Assembly: GCA_951406725.2 (NCBI GenBank)
Contig: OX597828.1
Span: 11,222,001 to 11,286,000 of the forward strand
Reading direction: 5' to 3'
Source: Octopus vulgaris
Taxonomy: Eukaryota
Length of the DNA: 64,000 bases
The first letter of the stretch is position 1; every line of letters begins with the position of its first letter. Shown one piece after another: positions 4,440 through 60,482 of the stretch. The notes under the pieces were generated by a model that saw only the letters and a program-made list of their open reading frames with translations, was not told the DNA's origin and made no database searches. The position numbers were made by a program, and so were the translations under genes.

Positions 4440-4542
4440 TAGAAAAAGGATGAGCAAGAAAAACGAGGAACTTGAGGAAGGAGGAGGAGGAGGAGGAGGA
4501 GGAGAGAGGAGAAAGAAGGAGGGGGAGGAGGCGGAAAAAGAA

Positions 4543-4574
<32 letters not shown>

Positions 4575-4618
4575 AGAAGAAAATGAAGAAGAAAAAGAAG
4601 AAAGGGAAGAAGAAGAAG

Positions 4619-4649
<31 letters not shown>

Positions 4650-4827
4650 TGAAGAAGAAGAAGAAGAAGAAAATGAAGAAGAAAAAGAAGAGAGGGAAGA
4701 AGAAGAAGAAGAAGAAGAAGAAGAAGAAAATGAAGAAGAAAAAGAAGAAAGGGAAGAAGAAGAAGAAGAAGAAGAAGAAAATGAAGAAGAAAAAGAAGAA
4801 AGGGAAGAAGAAGAAGAAAATGAAGAA

Positions 4828-4859
<32 letters not shown>

Positions 4860-4884
4860 AAATGAAGAAGAAAAAGAAGGAGAA

Positions 4885-4919
<35 letters not shown>

Positions 4920-5325
4920 AGAAGGAGAAGAAGAAGAAGAAGAAGAAGAAGAAGAAGAAGAAGAAGAAGAAGAAGAAGAAGAAGAAGGAGGAGGGGGGGA
5001 GGAGGAGGAGAAGAAGAAGAAGAAGAAGAAGAAGAAGGAGGTGGAGGAGGAGGAGAAGGGAAGAAGAAGAAGAAGAAGAAGAAGGAGGAGGAGGAGGAGG
5101 AGAAGAAGAAGAAGAAGAAGAAAGAGGAGGAGGAGGAGAAGAAGAGGAAGGGAAGAAGAAGAAGAAGAAGAAGAAGAAGGATGAGGAGGAGAAGAAGAAG
5201 GAGAAGAAGAAGAAGAAGAAGGAGGAGGAGGAGGAGAAGGAGGAGGAGGGAAGAAGAAGAAGAAAAAGAAGAAGAAGAAGAAGAAGAAGAAGAAGAAGAA
5301 GAAGAAGAAGAAGAAGAAGAAGAAA
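4440..5325. repeat. ~880-bp polypurine (GAA/GGA)n array with higher-order units GAAAATGAAGAAGAAAAAGAAGAAAGG(GAA)n
   Basis: Read directly. It explains all the poly-E/K/F/S/L ORFs in the track. Confidence 0.95.
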
Positions 5326-12469: not shown

Positions 12470-13527
<1,058 letters not shown>

Positions 13528-15187: not shown

Positions 15188-15263
15188 CCCTTGTGTAATA
15201 AAGTACTACGTACAGAGTAGCCTAAAAGTCACGCAGCAAAGCATTTGACTTTATTTTTATTAC

Positions 15264-15308
<45 letters not shown>

Positions 15309-16358
15309 GTTATTATTATTATTATTGTTATTGTTATTGTTATTATTATTATTATTATTATTGTTATTATTATTATTATTATTCATTTTGTTCATCGTGT
15401 ACAAATATGTGTGTATTCATCATTATTTTATTTATTTTATTGAATTTTGTAAAAATTGAAGCACGTTTTTGACAATACAATTCCAGAGTGTATTGAACTT
15501 ATTTTGTCCGTAATTTTTGGCACGATTTTATAGTTCTAGAAAATGTTGGGCAACTAGCAGAATCGCTAGCACGTCGGAAACCTTGCTTAACGACATTTCT
15601 TCTGGTCCTTTACGTCCTGAGTTCAAATGAGTTGAGACCAACTTTCTTTCCTTGGGAAACGACAAAATAAAATATCAGTAAAATACTGAGGCCGATGTAT
15701 TTGACTTGCTATCTCTGCTCAAATTTGCTGGCCTTGAACCTTGCAACGGAACTGTGTCCTATTCAGAAGGATCATTGGGATCTCGACCGCTTGTACGTCA
15801 CGGAAACCGGGTAACCCGGCCTTATGAGTCCTGGGGCTCGAGAATAAAGAGAAACAGGATTTACAGAATCCTATAACATTGTTTTCAAATTTTGCCTCAA
15901 GGCCAGCAATTTTGGGGGTGTGAGTAAGTCGATTACATTAACCCCAGTGTTCAACTGTTTGTTTTTTTTTCCTCTATTTTATCAGCTTCGAAAGGATGAA
16001 CGGCAAAGTCGACTTCAGGCGAACTGCCGCTAAGCACATTCAGACGGGCTCACATTTCAGCCAGTCTGCTGCCTTGTATACAAGCATATAATAGTAATTC
16101 TATGCATAACATGTTATGCAGCACAGCTGATATATGAGGAGATAATCTACCATAATCCAATGTATTAGCTTTTAATATGTGATTTTATATAACTTCATAG
16201 ATATATGATATTAACAAAACGTAATCTTAAAAAAATAACAACGCTCAAACATTATTGCTTTTATTTAATGAAACTGTATGGAAGACAATTTTACAGCCAA
16301 ATATTATATACGATGGGCCCTATTAATATTTATTTTTATTTTGGTGAAAAAAATACAT

Positions 16359-20945: not shown

Positions 20946-21326
20946 CTGCTATATCCCAGCCATAATCTATTTGATAGTTTTTGATCCGTTAACATTCTTT
21001 ATCTTTATATGGAATTTTGTGAAAAAAACCTCTATAAGAGAGGAAAGTATTGGGTTGTCCAGAAAGTTCGTACCGATTTGGTACAAGGCCAGCAATTTCG
21101 GGGCTGGGTATGTCGATTACTTCGAACCTGGTGCTGTACTGGTACTTATTATAACCGAACCCGAAAGGAAGAAAAGTAAAGTCGACCTCAGTGGAAGTTG
21201 AACTCAGAACAAAAGAGGAACGAAATGCCGCTAAACATTTTGCCAGCTTGCTTGCCTTAGTGTTTTTATTTATATTAGTGATGGAAATGGTGATGCTGTT
21301 GTTCCTTTAAATGCTATATTATTCTA

Positions 21327-21892
21327 TTGGGTTGTCCGGAAAGTTCGTGCCGATTTATAGCAGCTTATCTTTCGACTTATTTTAGAACATGGTTGTGTCC
21401 ATAAAATAGGATTTGACTACACCTCCATTTAGAGCACAGTTTAAGCTATCTTTTCGTGGAAGAAGGTTTATGTTCCTATAACTTGTGTTAATTCTGTAAC
21501 CCTTTAAAATGGAAGATAAGAAAGTTCATTTTCGGCACTTGATGCTTTGGGAACCAGACAAAAATTGCTGCAGCTTGGATGGGATGTGTTACCCCACCCT
21601 CCATACTAACCAGATATTGCTCCTTCGGATTTCCACTTATTTAGGTCTCTGTAGAATAGTCTTAATGGTAAAAATTTCAATTCCTTGGATGACATAAAAA
21701 GATACCTTGATGAATTCTTTGCCATGAAACCACCTGAATTCTGGGAAGAGGGTATTTTCAAGTTAAAGGAAAGATGGAGACGCATCGTGCAACAAAATGG
21801 TTCATATTTGGTTGATTAAAAGTGTAATGGCAAATATTTATTGACCTTTTTCTATCTTTTAAAAATCGGCATGAATTTTCCGGACAACCCAA
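21327..21892 (+). mobile_element. Internally deleted mariner (566 bp) with ~30-bp TIRs and a TA target duplication
   Basis: TIR TTGGGTTGTCCGGAAAGTTCGTGCCGATTT and its near-perfect inverse. The N-terminus MEDKKVHFRHLMLWE is fused to the C-terminus LGWDVLPHPPY*PDIAPSDFHLFRSL...ERWRRIVQQNGSYLVD. Confidence 0.92.
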
Positions 21893-22107
21893 TAGTATCT
21901 ATACTGAGAAGTAATGTTTGTCACCGCGTTGAAGTGGCGACAAACATGCATTTTCTTTTCCTTTTAATCAAACTGTCGAATTTAGCCGGAATACCCTGTA
22001 AACCTAACAACTTATGACGTCAGTCAAACAGTAGTTGCGGTTTCCTTCTCTTCTCTTATCTTGAATATTGCAAGAATTAACCTGAACACTACAATAGTAG
22101 CTGTATA

Positions 22108-22340
22108 CCTATTTCTTTATTACCCACAAGGGGCTAAACACAGAGGGGACAAACAAGGACAGACATAGGTATTAAGTCGATTACATCGACCCCAGTGCGT
22201 AACTGGTACTTAATTTATCGACCCCGAAAGGATGAACGGCAATGTCGACCTCGGCAGAATTTGAACTCACAACGTAACGCAGACGAAATACCGCTAAGCA
22301 TTTCGCCCGGCGTGCTAACGTTTCTGCCAGCTCGCCGCCT
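22108..22340 (-). mobile_element. SINE family A monomer with a 13-bp TSD
   Basis: A-box and B-box-like head, and central GCC.TTCATCCTTTCGGGGTCGATAAA domain. TSD TAGTAGCTGTATA at 22095-22107 and 22341-22353. Confidence 0.92.
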
Positions 22341-22580
22341 TAGTAGCTGTATATCACTGTAATCGCACGCTACTGTCAGGGAACAAAGTTCTACTAGAGG
22401 TGCTACGACTGGAAATATGATGAGATGGTCATGGCTGGAATATCGTTGGTCAATAATCTGCTCGATCAGGGAGCAGATTTTACAAGGCAAAAGGAAGTGA
22501 TCAAAACTAAGTGCTTTGGTCCTGCATGAAATAAGATAATTTACTCTGGTTTCTTTGGCGTGTAATAACCATGGAAAATA

Positions 22581-23284: not shown

Positions 23285-24206
23285 TTGTTTCAAATTTTGG
23301 CGCAATGCTATCGGTTTTAGGGAGACGTTTTGGACGATTATATCGAGCTCAATGCCGTCAATTTTAGGGAGAAGATTTGGACGAATATATTGACTTGTAC
23401 TCATTTTATCAACTCCCGAAAAGATGAAGGAAAATTCAACCTTAACAGGATTTAAACTGAGACCGAAACGAGCCAAAATAAATACCACTAAGCATTTCCC
23501 CAACGCGCATACGGCCGGCTCTGCTAGCCCGCGGCCTTGATCTAGCTGAGAATAAGGGTTTCATATTTTGGCAAAAGGCCAACAATTTGGGTGGCGGGGA
23601 GTACGTCGATTAGCTTAACCTCCCCCCACTATTGCTCAACTGGCTTTAATTTATCGATCCAGAAAACATGAAAAGCATAGCGGATCTCAGCGGAATTTGA
23701 ACTCAGAACGTAAAGATGGGCGAAATGCCGCTAAGCATTTTGCTTAGCGGCATTTCGCCCGTTGTGCTACCGATTCTGCCAGCTCGCCGCCTTAAAGAAT
23801 TTTATCTTAGAACATAAAGACGGATGAAATGCCGTTAAGCATTTGCCTGGAGTGCTAACGATTCTACCAGTTTGCCGCCTTAAAGGTAAAGTCGACCTCA
23901 GCGGAATTTGAACTCAGAACGCAAAGATGGACGAAAAGCTGCTTAGATTTTTACCCGGCCTGCTAACGATTCTTATTTCTTTGCTGCTCACAAGGGGCTA
24001 CACACAGAAGGGACAAACAAGGACAAACAAACGGATTAAGTCGATTATATCGACCCAGTGCGTAACTGGTACTTATTTAGTCGACCTCGAAAGAATGAAA
24101 GGCAAAGTCGACCTCGGCGGAATGTGAACTCAGAACGTAGCGACAGACGAAATATTGCTAAGCATTTCGCCCGGCGCGCAAACGTTTCTGCCAGCTTACT
24201 GCCTTA
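23285..24206 (-). mobile_element. Cluster of tandem and nested family A SINEs
   Basis: At least five head or body segments in the same orientation. Confidence 0.85.
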
Positions 24207-26356: not shown

Positions 26357-27931
26357 TTCAAAAAGAGATATCGTAAGACGGAATGCCATATAAGAAGGTT
26401 ATATTTGGTTAACTGTGTAGATCCAAGTCACTCACGATCTGTCTGACTGATGATCAAAGTTGTTCCAGATGTGACCCCTCGCACATTGTTTTCTTTCCTT
26501 CAGCAGATTTGGCCAGATCGGCTGGCAACAAAGATTTTGCCAAGACTGACTCTCAGTTTGGTTTTGTGATGGAAAACGGTACACGTAGCAAATGCAGTGG
26601 CAGATGCACTTTGCCGGTCACACAGCTCCTTTACAGCCAGAGTGTCCGTTGGTGCTAATCAAACACCATAAATTCCACACTTTTTTTTCAGTTTTACGAT
26701 CTGGCTTGAAATGCGTGGTGCCTATCGTGAGTATTCTGGGGCGACGCCGAATTTGATAAATGACATTTAGTTCAGACCAATGTCGGTCACGAGTATTTGT
26801 CAGGATATGCCTGCTAAACGGTGTCCATACTTTGGAGAGTGCAATCATTACTTTAGTTGCCACTTCCGAGTTAGGACATTTTTGTACACCATATAGATGA
26901 TTGAGATAAGGAATTCACAGCAATGTGGGTCCACCACGGGTGGTAATTGCACTCAAACACCATTAATCCGTTGGCACCTGATGGCAACGAGGAATATGTG
27001 TATAAACTGCATTTGACTTTATGTGTCTTTTGGTTGCTGTTTATAGAATTGCAGCTGCGTCAATAACAGCAGGGAGAATGACAGTAACAGCGATACAACA
27101 ACGGCAATAACAACAACAATACCTTGGGTAATATAGAATAAGATAGCATTTAAAGGAACAACAGCATCACCATTTCCATCACTAATATAAATAACAACAC
27201 TAAGGCAAGCAAGCTGGCAAAATGTTTAGCGGCATTTCGTCCCTCTTTTGTTCTGAGTTCAACTTTTGCTGAGGTCGACTTTACTTTTCGTCCTTTCGGT
27301 TTCGATAAAATAAGTACCAGTACAGTACCGTGGTTGAAGTAATCGACGTACCCAACCCCGAAATTACTGGCCTTGTGCCAAATTCTAACAAATGTTAGCA
27401 ACGCTAACAGCGACGGGCAAATATGAGAACCTCCGCGAAGTTCGTTAATCTGCTAGATATAACAGCCAAATACCCCTCAAATCACGTCCTACTGTAATTA
27501 AATAAGAAATGACTCATTGGATAATGTAGTCCCGTGTATAGAACAAAACATGGAATAGTTACTTCTATAATGTACTTGAGCACATTTCTGCACGAATAAA
27601 TTTGGTGGAGTCAGACAACAATAACATTACTACCAAGAAAAGGGGTGTTTTTGTCCGAGCCACAATCTTCTGAACTAAAAATCTGCTCGAATAGAAGCAA
27701 AGAAATACGATTTTAGCGCAGTCTCAGTCGAGTTGAGGAAACGAATCTTTCCATGTCGCAGGCGTGGCTGTGTGGTAAGAAGCTTGTTCCCCAACAACAC
27801 AGTTCAGAATGGCTTCAGTCACACTGCGTGGCATCTTGGGAAAGTGTCTTCTACAGTAGCCACGGACCGACGAAAGTCTTGGCAGTACATTTGGTTGACA
27901 GAAACTGAAAGAAGATCTGGCAGAATGTGCC

Positions 27932-28345
27932 AGCAGCGAGCTGGCAGAATTGTTAGCACACCGGGCGAAATGCGTAGCCCTATTCCGTCCGTCTTTACGT
28001 TCTGAGTTCAAATTCCGCCGAGGTCGACTTTGCCTTTCATCCTTTCGGGGTCGATTAAATAAGTACCAGTTACGCACTGAGGTCGATATAATCGACTTAA
28101 TCCGTTTATCTGTCCTTGTTTATCCCCTCTCTGTTTGGCCCCTTGTGGGTAGTAAAGAAATAGGTATTTCGTCTGCCGCTAGGTTTTGAGTTCAAATTCC
28201 GCCGAAGTCGACTTTGCCTTTCGTCCTTTCGGGGTCAATAAATTAAGTACCAGTTACGCACTGGGGTCGACATAATCGACATAATCCGTTTATCTGTTTT
28301 GTTTGTCCCCTCTGTGTGTAGCCCCTTGAGGGCAATAAAGAAATA
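27932..28345 (+). mobile_element. Family A SINE dimer inserted into a family B SINE (head at 27757)
   Basis: A full unit is followed by a headless unit joined at AAGAAATA|GGTATTTC (28163). An imperfect GAAACTGA..AGATC duplication flanks it. Confidence 0.88.
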
Positions 28346-28499
28346 GGAAACTGAGAGATCACCGTTTGTATATGTGTGTGCGTGTGTGTGTGCGTGTGCG
28401 CGTGCGCGTGCGTGTGCGCGTGCGCGTGCGTGTGCGTGCGTGTGGCCGATAAAAAATGAAAATATAATCAAAATAAACATACACGCACAATGCTGCCTC

Positions 28500-33135: not shown

Positions 33136-34190
33136 AAGGCGGAGGGCTGGCAGAATCGTTAGCACGCCGAGCGAAATGCTTAGCAGTATATCGTCTGCCG
33201 TCACGTTCTGAGTTCAAATTCTGCCGAGGCCAGTTTTGCATTTCATCCTTTCGGAGTCGATAAATTAAGTACCAGTTACACACTGGGGTCGATGTAATCG
33301 ACTTAATCCGTTTGTCTGTCCTTGTTTGTCCCCTCTACGTTTAGCCCCTTGTGGGCAATAAAGAAATTAGAAACTTTAATATGTTGTGCAAAATACTTAG
33401 CAGCCTTTCGTCAATCTTCATGCTCCGAGTTCAAATTCTGCCGAGGTCGACTTTGCATTTCATCCTTTCGGGGTCGATAAATTAAGTACCAGTTACGCAC
33501 TGGGGTCGATATAATCGACTTAATCCATCTGTCTGTCCTTGTTTGTCTCCTCTGTGTTTAGCCCCTTGTGGGTAGTAAAGAAATAGGTATTTCGTCTGCC
33601 GTTACGTTCTGAGTTCAAATTCCGCTGAGACAAACTTTGCCTTTCATCCTTTCGGGGTCGATAAATTAAGTACCAGTTACGCAGGGGTCGATATAATCGA
33701 CTTAATCCGTTTGACTGTCCTTGTTTGTCCCCTCTATGCTTAGCCCCTTGTGGGTAGAAAAGAAATAAGAATCGTTAATACGTTGCGCAAACTACTTAGC
33801 AGCATTTCGTCATCTCCACGTTCTGAGTTCAAATTCCCACGTGGTTGACTTTGCCTTTCATCTTTTCGGGTTCGATGAAATAATGTACCAGTTGAGTAAC
33901 CAATTTAACCTCTCCTCTGAAATCGCTGGCCTTGTGCCAAAATTTGAAATCGATATCTCTTATGTGCTTAAAGCTGAGAGTTGGCAGAATCGTCAGCAGG
34001 CTGGGTAAAATGCTTAGCGGTATTTCGTCTGCCGCTACGTTCTGAGTTCAAATTCCACCTATGCCGACTTTGCCTTTCATCCTTTCGGGATCGATAAAAT
34101 AAGTAGCAGTTGAGTGCTGGTATCGATATAATCGACTTACCGACTTCCATGAAAGTGCAGGCGTTGTGCCAAAATTCGAAATCAATATTT
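33136..34190 (+). mobile_element. Family A SINE tandem array (four joined units plus one adjacent older copy)
   Basis: Junctions at ~33368, 33586 and 33768. Confidence 0.9.
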
Positions 34191-34209
34191 CTAAAGTGTT
34201 GATTTGCCT

Positions 34210-36330: not shown

Positions 36331-37349
36331 GTTGAATGTATTCAACTATCACCATCACCAGTACCACCACCGTCGCCACCACAACTGTCATACACACACC
36401 ATTCAGACTTCTGACGCCACCGCCATCAATAACTTTGACTTCGCCGCTTTCCCCTCTACCATTATCACCACTGTCTTTCACATCGCTTACTCTCACCGTC
36501 ATACCTGACCACCACAACAATCAATGCCGGTGTTTCGCTCGTCGCTACGTCCTGAATTCAAATTCCGCCGAGGTCGGCTTTGCCTTTCATCCTTTCGGGG
36601 TCGATAAATTAAGTACCAGTTACGCACTGGGGTCGCTGTAATTGACAATACCCCTCCCCTCAAAATCCAGTCTTTGTGCCTATAGTAGAAAGAAATATTG
36701 CTTGATGAAAATGCATAGTTCACCTATAGAGAAGCATGTCTATAATGCGACCAACTTAAAACATTTGTCGAATAACAGCTGGTTTGCCCTGCAAATCAAC
36801 ACTTTAGAAATATTGATTTCGAATTTTGGCACAAGGCCTGCAATTTCACGGAAGATACATATTTGTCTGAAAGTGTTTGTTCTCCAAAGATAAAATAATA
36901 TACTAGCGGTTAGCATATTCACTTTCTAATCAGCCGGAACGCATAACGAACGAATATCTGTCATCGTCTCGATTCTTGCATTCTAATATGCACAAGACGA
37001 TTTGTTAAGGGTTAGTAGCTACCAACACGCATCAGCAGATAATTTGCTTGTTGTGGGTATAAACAAGTGCTTCAAACCCTTGTTAGATGCAACAGTTCAT
37101 AGTACCTTTGACTGAGGATACGCACTGATGTCGAGATACCAGGTAACCCAAAGTCTCTTTATGCTAATGAATCAAGTATGTTATGATCACACTGTAGTAT
37201 GGAAGGAACACTTACACTCCTATGAGGAAACACTACAGCTTATAACGTACAATTTAAGAAATTGTTTATGTTATGCTTTTTATACATAAATATATACACA
37301 GCTTTTATCATGTCCATATTTTGGCAATATCGAGAGGTCTAAAATATCA

Positions 37350-50459: not shown

Positions 50460-51739
50460 GAGGGACGTTCAATAAGTAATGCCCCTGACCCACTTGCAGT
50501 TGTTTGATCTAGCTGCAATTTTGCATGTGCAATTATTCATATCTTTATAGATTAAATGGCGAATTACAGCTCTGTGGTTTCTGAGTTACAGGTGTTTGAA
50601 CTGAGTCAAATGTGAAATGGAGCCTGTTGAGTGTCGAGCAGTGGTCCGGTTTTTGTATTTGTAAGGACGCACACCACGGGAGACTTTGATGAAATGAAAG
50701 TAACTTATGGTGATGATGCCCCATCATATGACCTTGTAAAACGCTGGCATCGTGAATTCAAACATGGTCGGAACTCTGTGGAAACAGCTCCCAGATCTGG
50801 TCGCCCCCCTTCTGCCATTGATGAGGCATCTGTCCGTCAAGTTGATGCTGCCATTTTGGAAGATCGACGCATAACTATTCGCCAAATAGCCCATGAGGTC
50901 AAGATTAGTACCGGGTCTGTGGAAACTATCATTCATGACCATTTGCATATGCAAAAGGTGTCTGCCAGATGGATTCCCAGGCTGCTCACACCTTTCCAGA
51001 AGCAAGAACGCGTCGAGTGCTCGAGGATGAATTTGGAGATGTGCCAAGAAGATGAGTCAAATATTTTCAAAAGACTGATTACACAGGATGAAACCTGGGT
51101 CCATCACTATGATTCAGAGACCAAAGCCCAGTCAATGCAGTGGAAGCACCATGACTCACCTCCTCCAAAGAAGGCAAGGGTTCAGCCCTCCGCTGGCAAA
51201 GTCATGCTCACAGTCTTCTGGGACCAGGACGAAGTAGTGATGACAGATTTCCTGGCAAAGGGTACCACAATTACAGGAGCCTATTATCCTTCACTTTTGA
51301 GGAAATTAAGAGAAACTATCAAAATCAAGAGGCGGGGCAAGATCAGCAAAGACATCCTCCTCCTGCAGGACAACGCTCCGGTCCACAACTCGCGTCTCGC
51401 CAGATCAAAAGCACAGGCGTGCGGCTATGACCCCCACCCCCACCCCCTACTCTCCTGACCTTGCACCCTCTGATTTTCACCTCTTCCCAGTCATGAAGTT
51501 GTTTTTGAAAGGAAAGCGTTTCCCAGATGATGCAGCCTTGATTTCTGAAGTCACGTCGTAGTTGGAGGACCAAGCTGGGGTCTTCTACAAAAACGGTCTC
51601 CAAAGCTGCATCAAACGATGGGAGAAATGCGTAACTCTGGATGGTTCCTATGTAGAAAAAGACTAATAACTGTGCCAAGTTTCGTTGCTCTACTGCTATG
51701 GGAAGTGGGTCAGGGACATTACTTATTGAACGCCCCTCG
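50459..51739 (+). mobile_element. Full-length mariner transposon (1281 bp) with 37-bp TIRs, inserted in (TA)n
   Basis: Left TIR CGAGGGACGTTCAATAAGTAATGCCCCTGACCCACTT. The right TIR at 51703-51739 differs at 2 positions. TA is present on both sides. Confidence 0.97.
50617..51666 (+). pseudogene. Mariner DD34D transposase, inactivated (irritans-like)
   Basis: Starts MEPVECRAVVRFLYL* and contains WIPRLL, TQDETW, LQDNA and HPPYSPDLAPSDFHLF. It has two in-frame stops and at least two frameshifts. Confidence 0.95.
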
Positions 51740-53372: not shown

Positions 53373-53606
53373 TAGGCGGCGAGCTGGCAGAACCGTTTGC
53401 ACGCCAGACGAAATGCGTAGCCGTATTTCGTCTGCCGTTACATTCTGAGTTCAAATTCCGCCGAGGTTGACTTTGCCTTTCATCCTTTGGGGGGTCGATA
53501 AATTAAGTACCAGTTACGCACTGGGGTCGATATAATCGACTTAATCCGTTTGTCTGTCCTTGTTTGTCCCCTCTGTGTTTAGCCCCTTGTGGGTAGTAAA
53601 GAAATA
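53373..53606 (+). mobile_element. SINE family A monomer
   Basis: Complete from GGCGGCGAGCTGGCAGAA to AAGAAATA. Confidence 0.93.
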
Positions 53607-54069: not shown

Positions 54070-55445
54070 TAGTCTCAAATTTTGGCATAAGGCAAGAAAA
54101 TTTGGAGGAGGGGTTAAGTCGATTACATCGATCCAAGTACTCGACTGGTACTTATTATATCGACTTTTAAAAGGATGAAAGGCAAATTTGACCTCGGCGG
54201 AATTTGAACTCAGAACAATAAGACGAACGAAATGCTGTTAAGCATTTTGCCCGGTGTGTTAACGATTCTGCCAGCTTGCTCGCTGCCTTAATATCGGTTT
54301 TAAATTTTTGCACAAGGCCAGCAATTTATGAGAAGGATAAATCGATTACATTGATTCCAGTGTTCAATTGATACTTATTTTATCGGCCCCGAAAGGATGA
54401 AAGGTTGAAAGGCAAAGTTCACCTGGGTGAAATTTGAACTCAGACCATAAGGACGGACGAAATGCTGCTAAGCATTTTACCCAGTGCGTTAACTATTCTG
54501 CCAGTCTGCCGCCTTTCGTCGCCTTCATTGATTCCTAATGTAGGTACAAGGCTCCTAACTTGAAATAAGAGTACAAATGGCCATGTCGAATTCCAGTATT
54601 AGATTGGTACCTAATTTCCCTGATCCTGGAAGCATAGAATTTAGTATTGACCTCGAAGGAATTAGATCTCAGAATAAAAAGAGACGTAGCTGCAAGGTAT
54701 TTTGTCCACTACGCTTTAATAATTGCTTCTAATTTTAGTACAAAGACAGAAATTTTGAGGAAAGAATGTTAGTCGATATCATTGATCCGAGAGCTTGACT
54801 GCTACTTTGTTTTATCGATTCCTGAAACATGACTTCGGCGATGTTTGAGCTCAGAACAAAAAGGCAATGTTGGCCAGAATGCAAAGGATCGGAAACACAC
54901 GCTACAAGCCTCTTTCCCAACGATCTTACGATTCTACCAATACTTTTTTTAAGTTTTGGCACAAGGCCAGCAATTTTCGGGTAAGGGATAAGTCAGTTAC
55001 TTCGACCCCAGTGTTCAACTGGTACTTATTTTATCTACCCCGAAAGGATGAAAGGCAAAGTCGATATCGGCAGAATTTATAGACGGACGGAATGTAGCTA
55101 AGCATTCGACTGGCGTACTAAAGATTCCCTCAGCTCACCGCCTTTACGTTTCTACTAATATTGATGAGGGGAAAAATACTGCAGAAAGGAAGAATGAATA
55201 CTAAATACTAATGCAATATTATTATGTGTAATAAAGGCGGCGAGCTAGCAGAGTTATTAGCACGCCGGACAAAATGCTTAGCGGCATTTCTTCCGGCTCT
55301 CCATTCTGAGTTCAAATTCGCAGTGGCGACTCCGCCTTTCATTCTTTTGGAGTCGATGAAATAAGTAGCAGTTGAGCTCTGGGGTCGATGTAATCGAGTA
55401 GACCCCACCCTAAAATATCAAGCTTTGTACCTGTAGAGGAAAAAA
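54070..55445. mobile_element. Cluster of older family A SINEs (several on -, one on + at 55234-55445)
   Basis: Same head and central domain, with the alternative tail GGCCTTGTGCCAAAATTT. Confidence 0.8.
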
Positions 55446-55755
55446 TTATATATGTAATAGAGCATTATATATGTAATATAGTGAGATGAAAAATTTTGAT
55501 CAAATGAACTGGATTTAAATATGAAATTCACTCCGATCAATACTGTCTGTATGATCCACATAATTTTATCAACTGATCATAATGTAGTACTTAAACAAAC
55601 CAACACCGGTTGTCAGTTGGTGAAAAGAACGTACGCAAAGACAGACACATCCAGTTTCGGACACCCGTTTACTTAGAAGGCATTGGTCTGTCAATGCCTC
55701 AGTAGAAAACTGTTGCCTGAAGTGCCGCGCACTCAGACTGAATCCGAAACCATGT

Positions 55756-56672
55756 ATTTCTTTTCTACTCTAGGCACAAGGCCCGAAATGTTTGGGGAGG
55801 GCGGGGGGGGCAATCGATTAGATCGGCCCCTGTACGCAAAGTCGACCTCGGCGGAATTTAAACTTAGAACATAAAAACAGATGAAATACCTATTTCTTTA
55901 CTACCCACAACGGGCTAAACACAGAGAGGACAAACAAGGTCAGACAAAGGGATTAAGTCGATTATATCGACCCCAGTGCGTAACTGGTACTTATTTAATC
56001 GACCCCGAAAGGATGAAAAGCAAAGTCGACCTCGGCGGAATTTGAACTCAGAACGTAACGGCAGACGAAATACTTATTTCTTTACTACCCACAAGGGGCT
56101 AAACGCAGAGAGGAGAAACAAGGACAGACAAACGGGTTAAATCGATTATATCGACCCCTGTAACTGGTACTTATTTAATATACCTCGAAAGGATGAAAAG
56201 CAAAGTCGACCTCGGCGAAATTTGAACTCAGAACATAGCGGCACACGAAATACCTATTTCTTTATTACCCACAAGGGGCTAAACACAGAGAGGACAAACA
56301 AGGACTAACAAACGGATTAAGTCGATTACATCAACCACCAGTGCGTAACTGGTACTTATTTTATCGACCCCGAAAGGATGAAAGGCAAAGTCGACCTCGG
56401 CGGAATTTGAACTCAGAACATAGCGGCACACGAAATACCTATTTCTTTATTACCCACAAGGGGCTAAACACAGAGAGGACAAACAAGGACAGACAAACGG
56501 ATTAAGTCGATTACGTCAACCCCAGTGCGTAACTGGTACTTATTTTATCGACCCCGAAAGGACGAAAGGCAAAGTCGACCTCGGCGGAATTTGAACTCAG
56601 AACGTAGCGGCAGACGAAATACTGCTAAGCATTTCGCCCGGCGTGCTAACGTTTCTGCCAGCTCGCCGCCTT
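55756..56672 (-). mobile_element. Family A SINE concatemer (one head, four ~184-bp bodies and a deleted terminal unit) inside an old family B copy
   Basis: GAAATAC recurs at 55883, 56067, 56247, 56432 and 56616. GAAACCATGTATTT flanks both ends (55746 and 56676). Confidence 0.93.
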
Positions 56673-57842
56673 CAGAAACCATGTATTTGCGAAGCGAGCT
56701 TCTTAACCACGCAGCAATAGTATCCATAAGGCTGAAGTTTAACCTGATTTCCAAGGTGTATAAGTGACTGAGATTACAGCATTCCCCACTCCAAAGGACG
56801 CCGGTCCATCGCAGGATTAACTTCCCAGGTATTATTAGAACTCATAGACAGCTAAATAGACTGGAGCAAAGAGAAACGAAGTATTTTGCTCACGATTATA
56901 TCGAACTTCCCGGTCCTAGAATCGAGTCCACGATTTTATGATTACGCGTGCAGTTTCCTGCCCAACAGATCAAACGCTCTCCGGCATAAAAAGAAGATTC
57001 GAAAACAACAAAGAAAGAACTCTTCGAAGGCTCATAACAGACCTAAGTCTTAAGTCCCACCTAAGTCAAATTTGTCAAAATTTGCAGACATTACTAAATG
57101 ATCACTTTTTCTATTGTTCCTTTCTGGGCGCAGAACATTACAAAATCTTTAGGGTCTTATATTCTGAAACTGCATTGTTTTTATTTATTTTCTTCCGGGG
57201 TAAAACAATTTCTGCCTGATAGAATAACTACCAGGTTTTTAAAACTGTAATACTGGGTTCGATTCATTCGACTGATATTCTCATCGTGGAGCCCCAGCAT
57301 GGCTGCAGTCAATTGACTGAAGCAAGTAAAAGATACAAGATGAAAGATAAATGATAAAAGATACGTCGTCAGCGTGGTTTCCCGGGATCACTGGTTGTTT
57401 CGGAACTTACAACATACATCCTTACCCAAGTAATGAGGCCTAGGTTGATCAAACCAAGGTGTGTATTCAAGCAGCCTTCTACTAACCCTACCGATCATCT
57501 ATAGAAAACAAAATAGATTTTTGTGGTAACATATTTGTTTCCATAACAAGAAAGTTCATGTGTCCCCGATAAAAATGTTTTGATGTCAAAATGTAGGAGT
57601 CACTGCTGTAAAAGCAGTGATGGTAATTTACCGTTTCCAACTTCCTGTTGCATTTAACTCTGTCATCTACAACATACCCCGTTATCAATCATACATTTCC
57701 TTGCTTTAATTTATCATGCTTGTTTGTTTATTGTTCTTCTTCCTCTTCTTTACTGTCACGTCCGCCACAACTACTGCCACGACCATCAAAATTAACCAAA
57801 ACCACCACCATTATCTTTATCCTCTATCTCTGCCTCTCTCTT

Positions 57843-59349: not shown

Positions 59350-60098
59350 GGGCATACATATACCCATAAAACCACATGTCAAAACATATACACACGTACA
59401 CACAAGCACCCACGTACTACGCACATACAGACAGAAAAGGGCGCACACATATTTACACAGAAATACACACATAGACGTATATTACACATACTAAGGAATG
59501 TTTAAACAATGACACACAAATAGGGGAACACACAAACACACATTCAAACACACAGTGATTCCAACGAACATACGATTTTAATATTCCTGACATGTTGGTT
59601 TAAAATTCTTGTCATCGTATTTTATAGCAACCGAATCCGAACAGATAAATTTCATGTGACTTGCCCTGGCTGGCAGTAAATCTTCCAGTACTTGTTCTCA
59701 GAGCTGGTTCGCTGCCTGCGTTTAGAGCAACTTGCCCAACCCACTACAACTTATGCACTGAATTATACGGTTTGCATTCATATATTTAGTCATTCATTCA
59801 TTTCCCCAGTTCTTATAGATTCGTTGTATTTGTTTTGAGGGGAGGGTGTTAGTTGATACCTTCGACCCCAGTACTTCGGCGGTGCATTTCTTTAACAAAT
59901 CCAGAAGAATGAAGGCAAAGTAGACCTCGACTGGATTTTAACCTTGAGCATAAAGAAACCAAAACAAATACCGCAGGGCAGTCTGTCAGAAGCTCTAGCG
60001 ATTTTGTCAATTTACCGTCGTTAGATGAAATAAGTTTGAATATTACACTTTTAATGACTTTAACTATAGAGTGAAAGCAAAGACAAAATGAATATTTA

Positions 60099-60482
60099 AT
60101 TCTTTATTGCCCACAAGGGGCTAAACATAGAGGGGACAAATAAAAACAGACAGATGGATTAAGTCGATTACATCGACCCCAGTGCGTAACTGGTACTTAT
60201 TTAATCGCCCCCGAAAGGATGAAAGGCAAAGTTGACCTCGATGGAAATTGAACTCAGAAGATAGCGACAGAGGAAATACCAATTTCTTTACTACCCACAA
60301 GGGGCTAAACACAGAGGGGACAAACAAGGACAGACAAACGGATTAAGTCGATTACATTGACCCCAGTAACTGGTACTTATTTAATCGACCTCGGCGGAAT
60401 TTGAACTCAGAACGTAGCGGCAGACGAAATACCGCTAAGAATTTCGCCCGGTGTGCTAACGTTTCTGCCAGTTCGCCGCCTT
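60099..60482 (-). mobile_element. Family A SINE dimer
   Basis: Junction GAAATACC|AATTTC at 60280/60281. Confidence 0.9.

Follow-up and report, generated by a model that had tools for sequence, protein, structure and literature searches.

A recurrent tail-to-internal joint in chained SINE copies of Octopus vulgaris, and its possible origin by self-insertion

The window, a stretch of 64,000 nucleotides (64 kb) of Octopus vulgaris DNA, contains 40 BLAST pieces of one repeat superfamily. Family A, its young member, has a 236-nt consensus, which is numbered here along the minus strand from window position 56675 (nt 1). A- and B-box-like motifs mark its head, a central motif follows, and the tail terminates in AAAGAAATA. 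The sister families B and C are older; they have the head and body in common with A, and their 3′ ends differ. At 55746–56688, five chained units are arranged on the minus strand in the order TSD, full A, three A units from nt 53, a fifth unit from nt 53, and TSD:

56675–56688, no strand: 14-bp TSD copy flanking the array on its 5′ side
56440–56674, minus strand: unit 1, full-length family A with complete head
56650–56660, minus strand: A-box-like motif of unit 1, read by eye
56609–56639, minus strand: head hairpin, holding the J1 restart (see below) and the only TATT of the sense strand
56587–56598, minus strand: B-box-like motif of unit 1, read by eye
56541–56576, minus strand: central motif of ~35 nt, in common with an unrelated repeat family of metagenome contigs
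56255–56439, minus strand: unit 2, family A nt 53–236, haplotype 1, 3.4% from unit 1
56075–56254, minus strand: unit 3, family A nt 53–236, its first 20 nt as in unit 2 and the remainder haplotype 2
55891–56074, minus strand: unit 4, family A nt 53–236, haplotype 2
55760–55890, minus strand: unit 5, older sister-family copy from nt 53 with a C-type 3′ end
55746–55759, no strand: 14-bp TSD copy flanking the array on its 3′ side, beginning (element sense) with 5 bases equal to the tail end

Family A is best read as an abundant Octopus tRNA-type SINE with B and C as sister families. SINEBase, in the part of the source available, defines SINEs as short, interspersed elements of many copies with A and B boxes, at least 60% tRNA identity over 60 nt, variable-length TSDs from target-primed reverse transcription, and a 3′ end in common with a partner LINE (PMC3531059). 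Family A is short, interspersed and present in many copies, as judged by BLAST in the window and by the sequencing runs X4 and X10, and its TSDs vary in length from 8 to 17 bp. ARAGORN and Rfam gave no tRNA match to family A, and no LINE open reading frame was found within the 64-kb window. The motifs of unit 1 were compared by eye with the Pol III promoter A- and B-box consensus. The central motif recurs in an unrelated metagenome repeat (L001–L121), with ~35 nt in common and 24 nt exact; among its 121 loci, 105 of 118 BLAST pieces map to nt ~100–135. Conserved SINE domains likewise recur across repeat families. Peptides of family A match records named Octopus bimaculoides in three of the seven matches looked up, another match being a crustacean repeat at 27% identity. 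Exact-motif scans of viral, prokaryote and metagenome contigs and of plasmids yielded no further A copies. Elsewhere in the window, a 275-codon open frame at 50631–51458 resembles, by eye, a mariner-type transposase fragment, and very long trinucleotide arrays occupy 4534–5324, 12470–13526 and 15251–15383 (GAA x265, TAT x123, TTA x44–45).

The array units meet at a joint, J1, at which the tail is followed directly by GGTATTTC; the downstream unit restarts at nt 53, and the period is 184 nt. The joints and the informative monomer in the window are as follows:

28162/28163, plus strand: J1, in a dimer
33585/33586, plus strand: J1, in the 33-kb cluster
56440/56439, 56255/56254, 56075/56074 and 55891/55890, minus strand: J1, four times in the array
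60281/60280, minus strand: J1 with a one-base tail variant
23974, 33368 and 33767: J2, the tail running into nt 20 of an older B-type head (3 of 16 tails)
22105–22341, minus strand: A monomer whose end equals the first 5 nt of a J1 read-through

The first-pass annotation had reported this tail-to-head joint at four loci (28163, 33586, four times in the 56-kb array, and 60280), and each occurrence was seen again; the second recurrent joint, J2, had escaped it. At 56075/56074, an A replaces the first G of the J1 motif. Sixteen family-A tails were counted in the window, 14 from the motif listing and two with a motif variant (55891, 28345). Seven of them form J1 at four loci, three form J2 and six enter flanking sequence; 10 of the 16 young A tails run on into a further copy. 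Within the window, nt 53 was nowhere seen joined to a B or C tail. J2 displays 4–5 nt of microhomology between tail and head and contains no TATT; the translated public records P0010 and P0013 bear a loose resemblance to it. A peptide-level search for joints returned 17 matches, none cleanly across J1. An extra GG had been assigned to the TSD of the monomer at 22108; it sits instead between the tail and the 13-bp TSD, and other bases precede the upstream TSD copy.

Four of 24 runs (X4, X10, X22 and X23) were compared with the monomer at 53374–53606. Matching contigs number 403,957 in X4 and 158,918 in X10, summed contig depth not being taken as copy number. Among the 15 joint entries listed for organism B (X4), from a longer and incompletely counted set, the tail end continues into nt 54–56 in 132 of 228 contigs; in another 54 it joins nt ~69–75 with ambiguous letters between, which may be J1. 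A further 1,597 loose ends lie before nt 54, and their consensus ends in the tail with an agreement of 0.51. J1 also occurs in two contigs of organism E and in one read of the raw run X22, and a shortened repeat bearing a J1 variant is found in X23 (25 and 18 reads). These raw DNA runs were kept out of the frequencies, with 10 (X22) and 256 (X23) matching reads of 12.9 million each, far below the expectation from repeat density. The X23 repeat is a tandem unit of ~80 nt in which the J1 variant is joined to nt ~170, and it resembles a small SINE-derived satellite. J2 is absent among the joints listed for the comparison runs. J1 is genome-wide in at least one relative and is present under three organism labels. 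Its recurrence exceeds chance: the same restart is used at four loci and ranks first among the tail joints listed for organism B.

A folding z of −2.8 confirms the head hairpin. The restart had been placed in its loop; more exactly, it lies at the boundary between the loop and the 3′ arm. The joint had further been proposed to rebuild this hairpin. It folds into a 5-bp A-U stem at most (z −0.7 to −1.8), and at both array joints that were folded another structure has lower energy than this stem. The weight laid on the hairpin is unsupported by folding.

The array is enclosed by one duplication, as first described, with 14 bp exact at 55746–55759 and 56675–56688. It is not family A throughout, as had been assumed: the fifth unit (55760–55890) is a deleted and more diverged sister-family copy, with a sister-family head type, an internal deletion at about nt 108–150 and 7/55 differences from the A consensus in nt 53–107. 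Unit 1 differs from the consensus at 0/49 positions in nt 4–52, and the contrast between its intact head and the ~10% diverged unit 5 has a p value of 0.014–0.059. The likelihood of a perfect 14-bp TSD is 0.57 for a young event and 0.05 for an old one. Considering the clean first head and the perfect TSD, the whole array could have arrived in one young event.

Units 1–4 are 3.4–10.5% apart in pairwise comparison. Two-versus-two splits among them occur at seven sites, against 0.93 expected under independent decay; none of 20,000 simulations reaches this excess, and p rises to 0.15 when one quarter of the sites has to absorb every change. Five of the split sites, from nt 108 to 229, group units 1 and 2 against 3 and 4, and two (nt 63 and 72) group units 2 and 3 against 1 and 4; no site among the four units groups 1 and 3 against 2 and 4. 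The A units of the array were not copied from one template. They represent two haplotypes, and a joint was straddled at least once by a duplication within the array at the DNA level. Since at least one array unit arose by such duplication, the four array joints are not independent events. This partly bears out one objection that the first-pass annotation had named against its own account, arrays explained by unequal crossover. It had also proposed to read identical units as rolling-circle copies, position-specific variants as a master multimer, and mixed subfamilies as jumping or self-insertion. The units are mixed: the A units fall into two haplotypes, the remaining unit is an older sister-family copy, and neighbours share variants. 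With a full terminal unit and equally truncated repeats inside one TSD, the array has the architecture of SINE satellites and TSD-(SINE)n-TSD arrays; it is neither long and homogenised nor built of repeats cut at both ends, as the spread among its units and their whole tails indicate.

Five clusters are readable in full (56, 60, 33, 28 and 23 kb). Besides the array, they are:

60097–60482, minus strand: dimer with J1 at 60281/60280
33136–34184, plus strand: five-unit cluster in the order A, J2, old head with A body, J1, A, J2, old B, degenerate target copy, B
27933–28347, plus strand: dimer with J1 at 28162/28163, units equally diverged, no clean TSD beside the head
23554–24205, minus strand: A copy joined via J2 to older B-type heads, the cluster lying within one degenerate 14-bp TSD

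In four of the five clusters (the array and those at 60, 33 and 23 kb), the 3′-most unit either is older or belongs to another family; at 28 kb the units are equal. In the 60-kb dimer, the downstream unit has 21/184 differences and the upstream unit 4/152 (p=0.003). The old-type differences of the 3′-most units begin within ~10–13 nt of the joint in four cases. At 56, 60, 28 and 23 kb, the first unit lacks a counterpart of the old-type variants found just past the joint, and hence no hidden TSD is found there. Arms of equal age and a fixed unit number, as in dimeric SINEs, are not observed: the 60-kb dimer is unequal, and the clusters have 2 to 5 units of mixed families. The 33-kb cluster is enclosed entirely by a 17-bp TSD with one mismatch. 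The unit after its J1 starts A-type though the resident start was old-type, which indicates that this joint was delivered ready-made.

In the 33-kb cluster, about 70 nt of one old head, private variants included, are duplicated at 33369–33440 and 33768–33840, and a degenerate third target copy is located near 33952, between two B copies. The B copy at 54944–55165 has a 17-bp TSD resembling head nt 11–28, perhaps an insertion into an old head. The C-type copy at 36530–36696, for which no TSD was found, seems to begin at nt 53; alternatively, it begins at ~nt 43 and carries a 4-bp deletion. Two inverted duplications involve B copies: 34144–34207 and 36791–36854 (95%, 64 bp), 2.6 kb apart, contain a B tail and target flank, and 21076–21327 and 27133–27383 (92%, 252 bp) contain a deleted B copy and its upstream flank.

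TSDs of 8–17 bp are credible at 10 of the 18 ends examined. TATT stands at the start (within a few bases) of seven of these 10 hand-picked 5′ TSD copies, against a background of 7.5% (p about 1e-6), with the 62.9-kb TSD scored as a miss; at that end, TATT is at offset 6. Offset 2 after the tail holds TATT in two of the five listed A ends that enter flanking sequence (the others being 4, 6 and none), in four of six B ends and in every J1. The AATATT at B ends may be partly coded by the element. The array TSD and the 22108 TSD contain no TATT. Insertion targets in the window mostly begin NN-TATT, and the sense consensus of family A contains TATT just once, at nt 55, two bases past the J1 restart. 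Dong/R4 LINEs, considered as a partner, target TAA repeats; none of the long TTA arrays of the window adjoins family copies.

These findings suggest a mechanism, to which we assign a probability of about one half, in which J1 originated by target-primed insertion into existing copies at nt 53 and then spread through read-through multimers and local unit duplication. A putative partner LINE would prefer to nick NN-TATT targets, and the only such site in the element, nt 53–58 of the head, would thereby become a target. Young A RNAs would be reverse-transcribed into resident A, B or C copies at this site, and the 5′ end would be resolved through homology with the resident head, leaving a full copy and a truncated copy within the resident's flanks. 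Pol III may read through such tandems, as the A consensus has no T4 run, and the multimer RNAs or cDNAs could bring the ready-made joint to new loci or to other copies. Local duplications of one unit would further lengthen the arrays. The older or other-family last units and the TATT bias of the targets, matched at nt 53, fit the insertion of young A elements into residents, and for the origin of the joint the mixed units support insertion into own copies, one of the models initially offered.

Several observations weigh against self-insertion. A hidden TSD between first and last units is missing; the array TSD, the 22108 TSD and J2 are without TATT; and J1 is tied to one tail variant, as inheritance from a master would predict. 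The array may also have arrived whole, although the T4/T5 runs present in units 3–5 would hinder read-through. On the supporting side, neither the A consensus nor array units 1 and 2 contain a run of at least four Ts. A more specific version of self-insertion, in which the 3′ end of the RNA anneals through its few read-through bases to nt 53–59 of residents and guides the SINE into itself, is rather doubtful.

Multimer templates are probably also at work, given the missing terminator, the 22108 end with its five read-through bases and the ready-made 33-kb J1. Under the main alternative, a single ancient accident created the joint, and all later spread is retroposition of a master, dimeric or multimeric, old last units being acquired by recombination or template switching with residents. 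The T-type tail variant occurs in 6/6 J1 tails and 3/8 other A tails (p=0.03; per locus p=0.08), a linkage expected from a master, as are the sharing of the joint by three organism labels, the terminator-free consensus, the multimer templates implied by the 22108 end and the 33-kb J1, and the young appearance of the array TSD and head; dimeric SINEs are, moreover, described in the portion of the squamate study available (PMC10702118). The age difference between the two units at 60 kb (p=0.003) and the variable unit number are difficult to reconcile with a master. Furthermore, the onset of old-type sequence ~10–13 nt past the joint in four cases would be rare for random crossovers within 50–180 nt of homology, and the joint falls on the target motif in the correct phase. 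As the whole explanation, a master is somewhat improbable, albeit the strongest competitor; as a secondary route, the multimeric master of the first-pass annotation is likely.

Template jumping, in which the reverse transcriptase halts at nt 53, or runs into processed RNA ends there, and hops onto the 3′ terminus of a different SINE RNA, producing mixed concatemers within one event, is quite unlikely. It would account for one perfect TSD enclosing three different templates and for a restart that borders a stable hairpin, and would make read-through unnecessary and the T runs of units 3–5 harmless. It leaves the oldest-last order and the match to the target motif unexplained, and monomers truncated at nt 53 are not clearly overrepresented in the window (one ambiguous case, 36530).

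The remaining explanations carry very little weight. A ~184-nt circular or ligated RNA (tail to nt 53), copied processively as in retrozymes, is consistent with the exact tail-to-internal joint, with a unit size inside the animal retrozyme range of 150–450 bp reported in the accessible part of that work (PMC7229834) and with a 6-nt complementarity between tail and head (naive chance about 0.2%). The family A units have no Rfam match and no hammerhead core, the joint hairpin is weak and the last unit belongs to another family. Since the units, mixed and non-identical, do not derive from one template by the split sites (p=0.15 under the extreme hot-site model) and no ribozyme was found, rolling circle is very unlikely. 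A ribozyme-free version, with the transcript cut at the tip of the tRNA-like hairpin, the tail ligated to nt 53, the ~184-nt circle or concatemer copied by a LINE reverse transcriptase and units mixed by later recombination, appears just as remote. Unequal crossover or slippage at the DNA level alone, as in SINE-derived satellites, is suggested by the sliding shared variants in the array, the old head duplicated at 33369 and 33768 and the shortened J1-bearing repeat in X23, but is highly improbable as sole cause: it accounts for array growth and not for the joint or its dispersal, the tail end and nt 40–52 are too dissimilar to yield one joint at unlinked loci, and the dispersed dimers already disfavour it.

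No new host function is indicated by J1. If the joint reflects self-targeting, it would provide a natural data set on multimer origin (insertion versus dimeric template), on homology-joined 5′ ends and on the birth of satellites from SINEs, and family counts in automatic repeat libraries would be inflated. Ribozyme-free RNA joining, if true, would represent a host-enzyme route to circular SINE templates.

Ohshima and Okada (1994) reportedly described the Octopus tRNA-derived SINEs OK, OR1 and OR2, and may mention tandems. OK, OR1, OR2 and the 'tRNA-Core' repeats resemble family A in their short tRNA-type head, common body, several tails and very high density. In the source excerpts available, SINEs make up 11.6% of the O. 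vulgaris genome (PMC13282606), and OR1 and OR2 are cited as CORE-SINEs (PMC4758252, PMC5804259, PMC4824008). A fixed tail-to-nt-53 joint was not found described for Octopus in the portions of the literature searched (including PMC5786205, PMC8967140 and PMC5907723); Ohshima and Okada 1994, Albertin 2015, the SINEBase supplement, MetaSINE, Repbase or Dfam may list one, or a dimeric or tandem consensus. Comparable chains are known from other animals, as far as the accessible parts of the sources describe them. In the bivalve Scapharca broughtonii, TSD-(SINE)n-TSD arrays likewise begin with a full tRNA head, continue with units of the same head truncation and lie within one TSD; their internal units are also 3′-cut (internal duplication), whereas the octopus A units keep the whole tail, and the octopus joint turns up repeatedly, both at unlinked loci and beyond this organism (PMC11481361). 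Squamate SINE satellites share tandem SINE portions, a longer terminal unit, a unit of ~150–180 bp, local turnover and short variable loci, but reach up to 1000 homogenised units, in contrast to 2–5 heterogeneous, mixed-family units in the octopus (PMC10702118). Animal non-LTR retrozymes also consist of TSD-flanked tandem repeats, each a few hundred bp long; they need a hammerhead in each unit, whereas family A has none and carries a Pol III-type head (PMC7229834). Dip, B2 and Ves form head-to-tail multimers at a similarly high share (Dip 49%; octopus A tails 10/16), their origin by insertion or from a dimeric template being left undecided by the authors (PMC8466645), and sequential SINEU-3 insertions show that a target preference can yield tandems (PMC4494074). 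These elements join full-length units at the tails or across a TSD (PMC8466645, PMC4494074), whereas the octopus joint lies within a head belonging to its own family, and no TSD separates the units. Chained SINEs are already known; the fixed joint is the unusual part.
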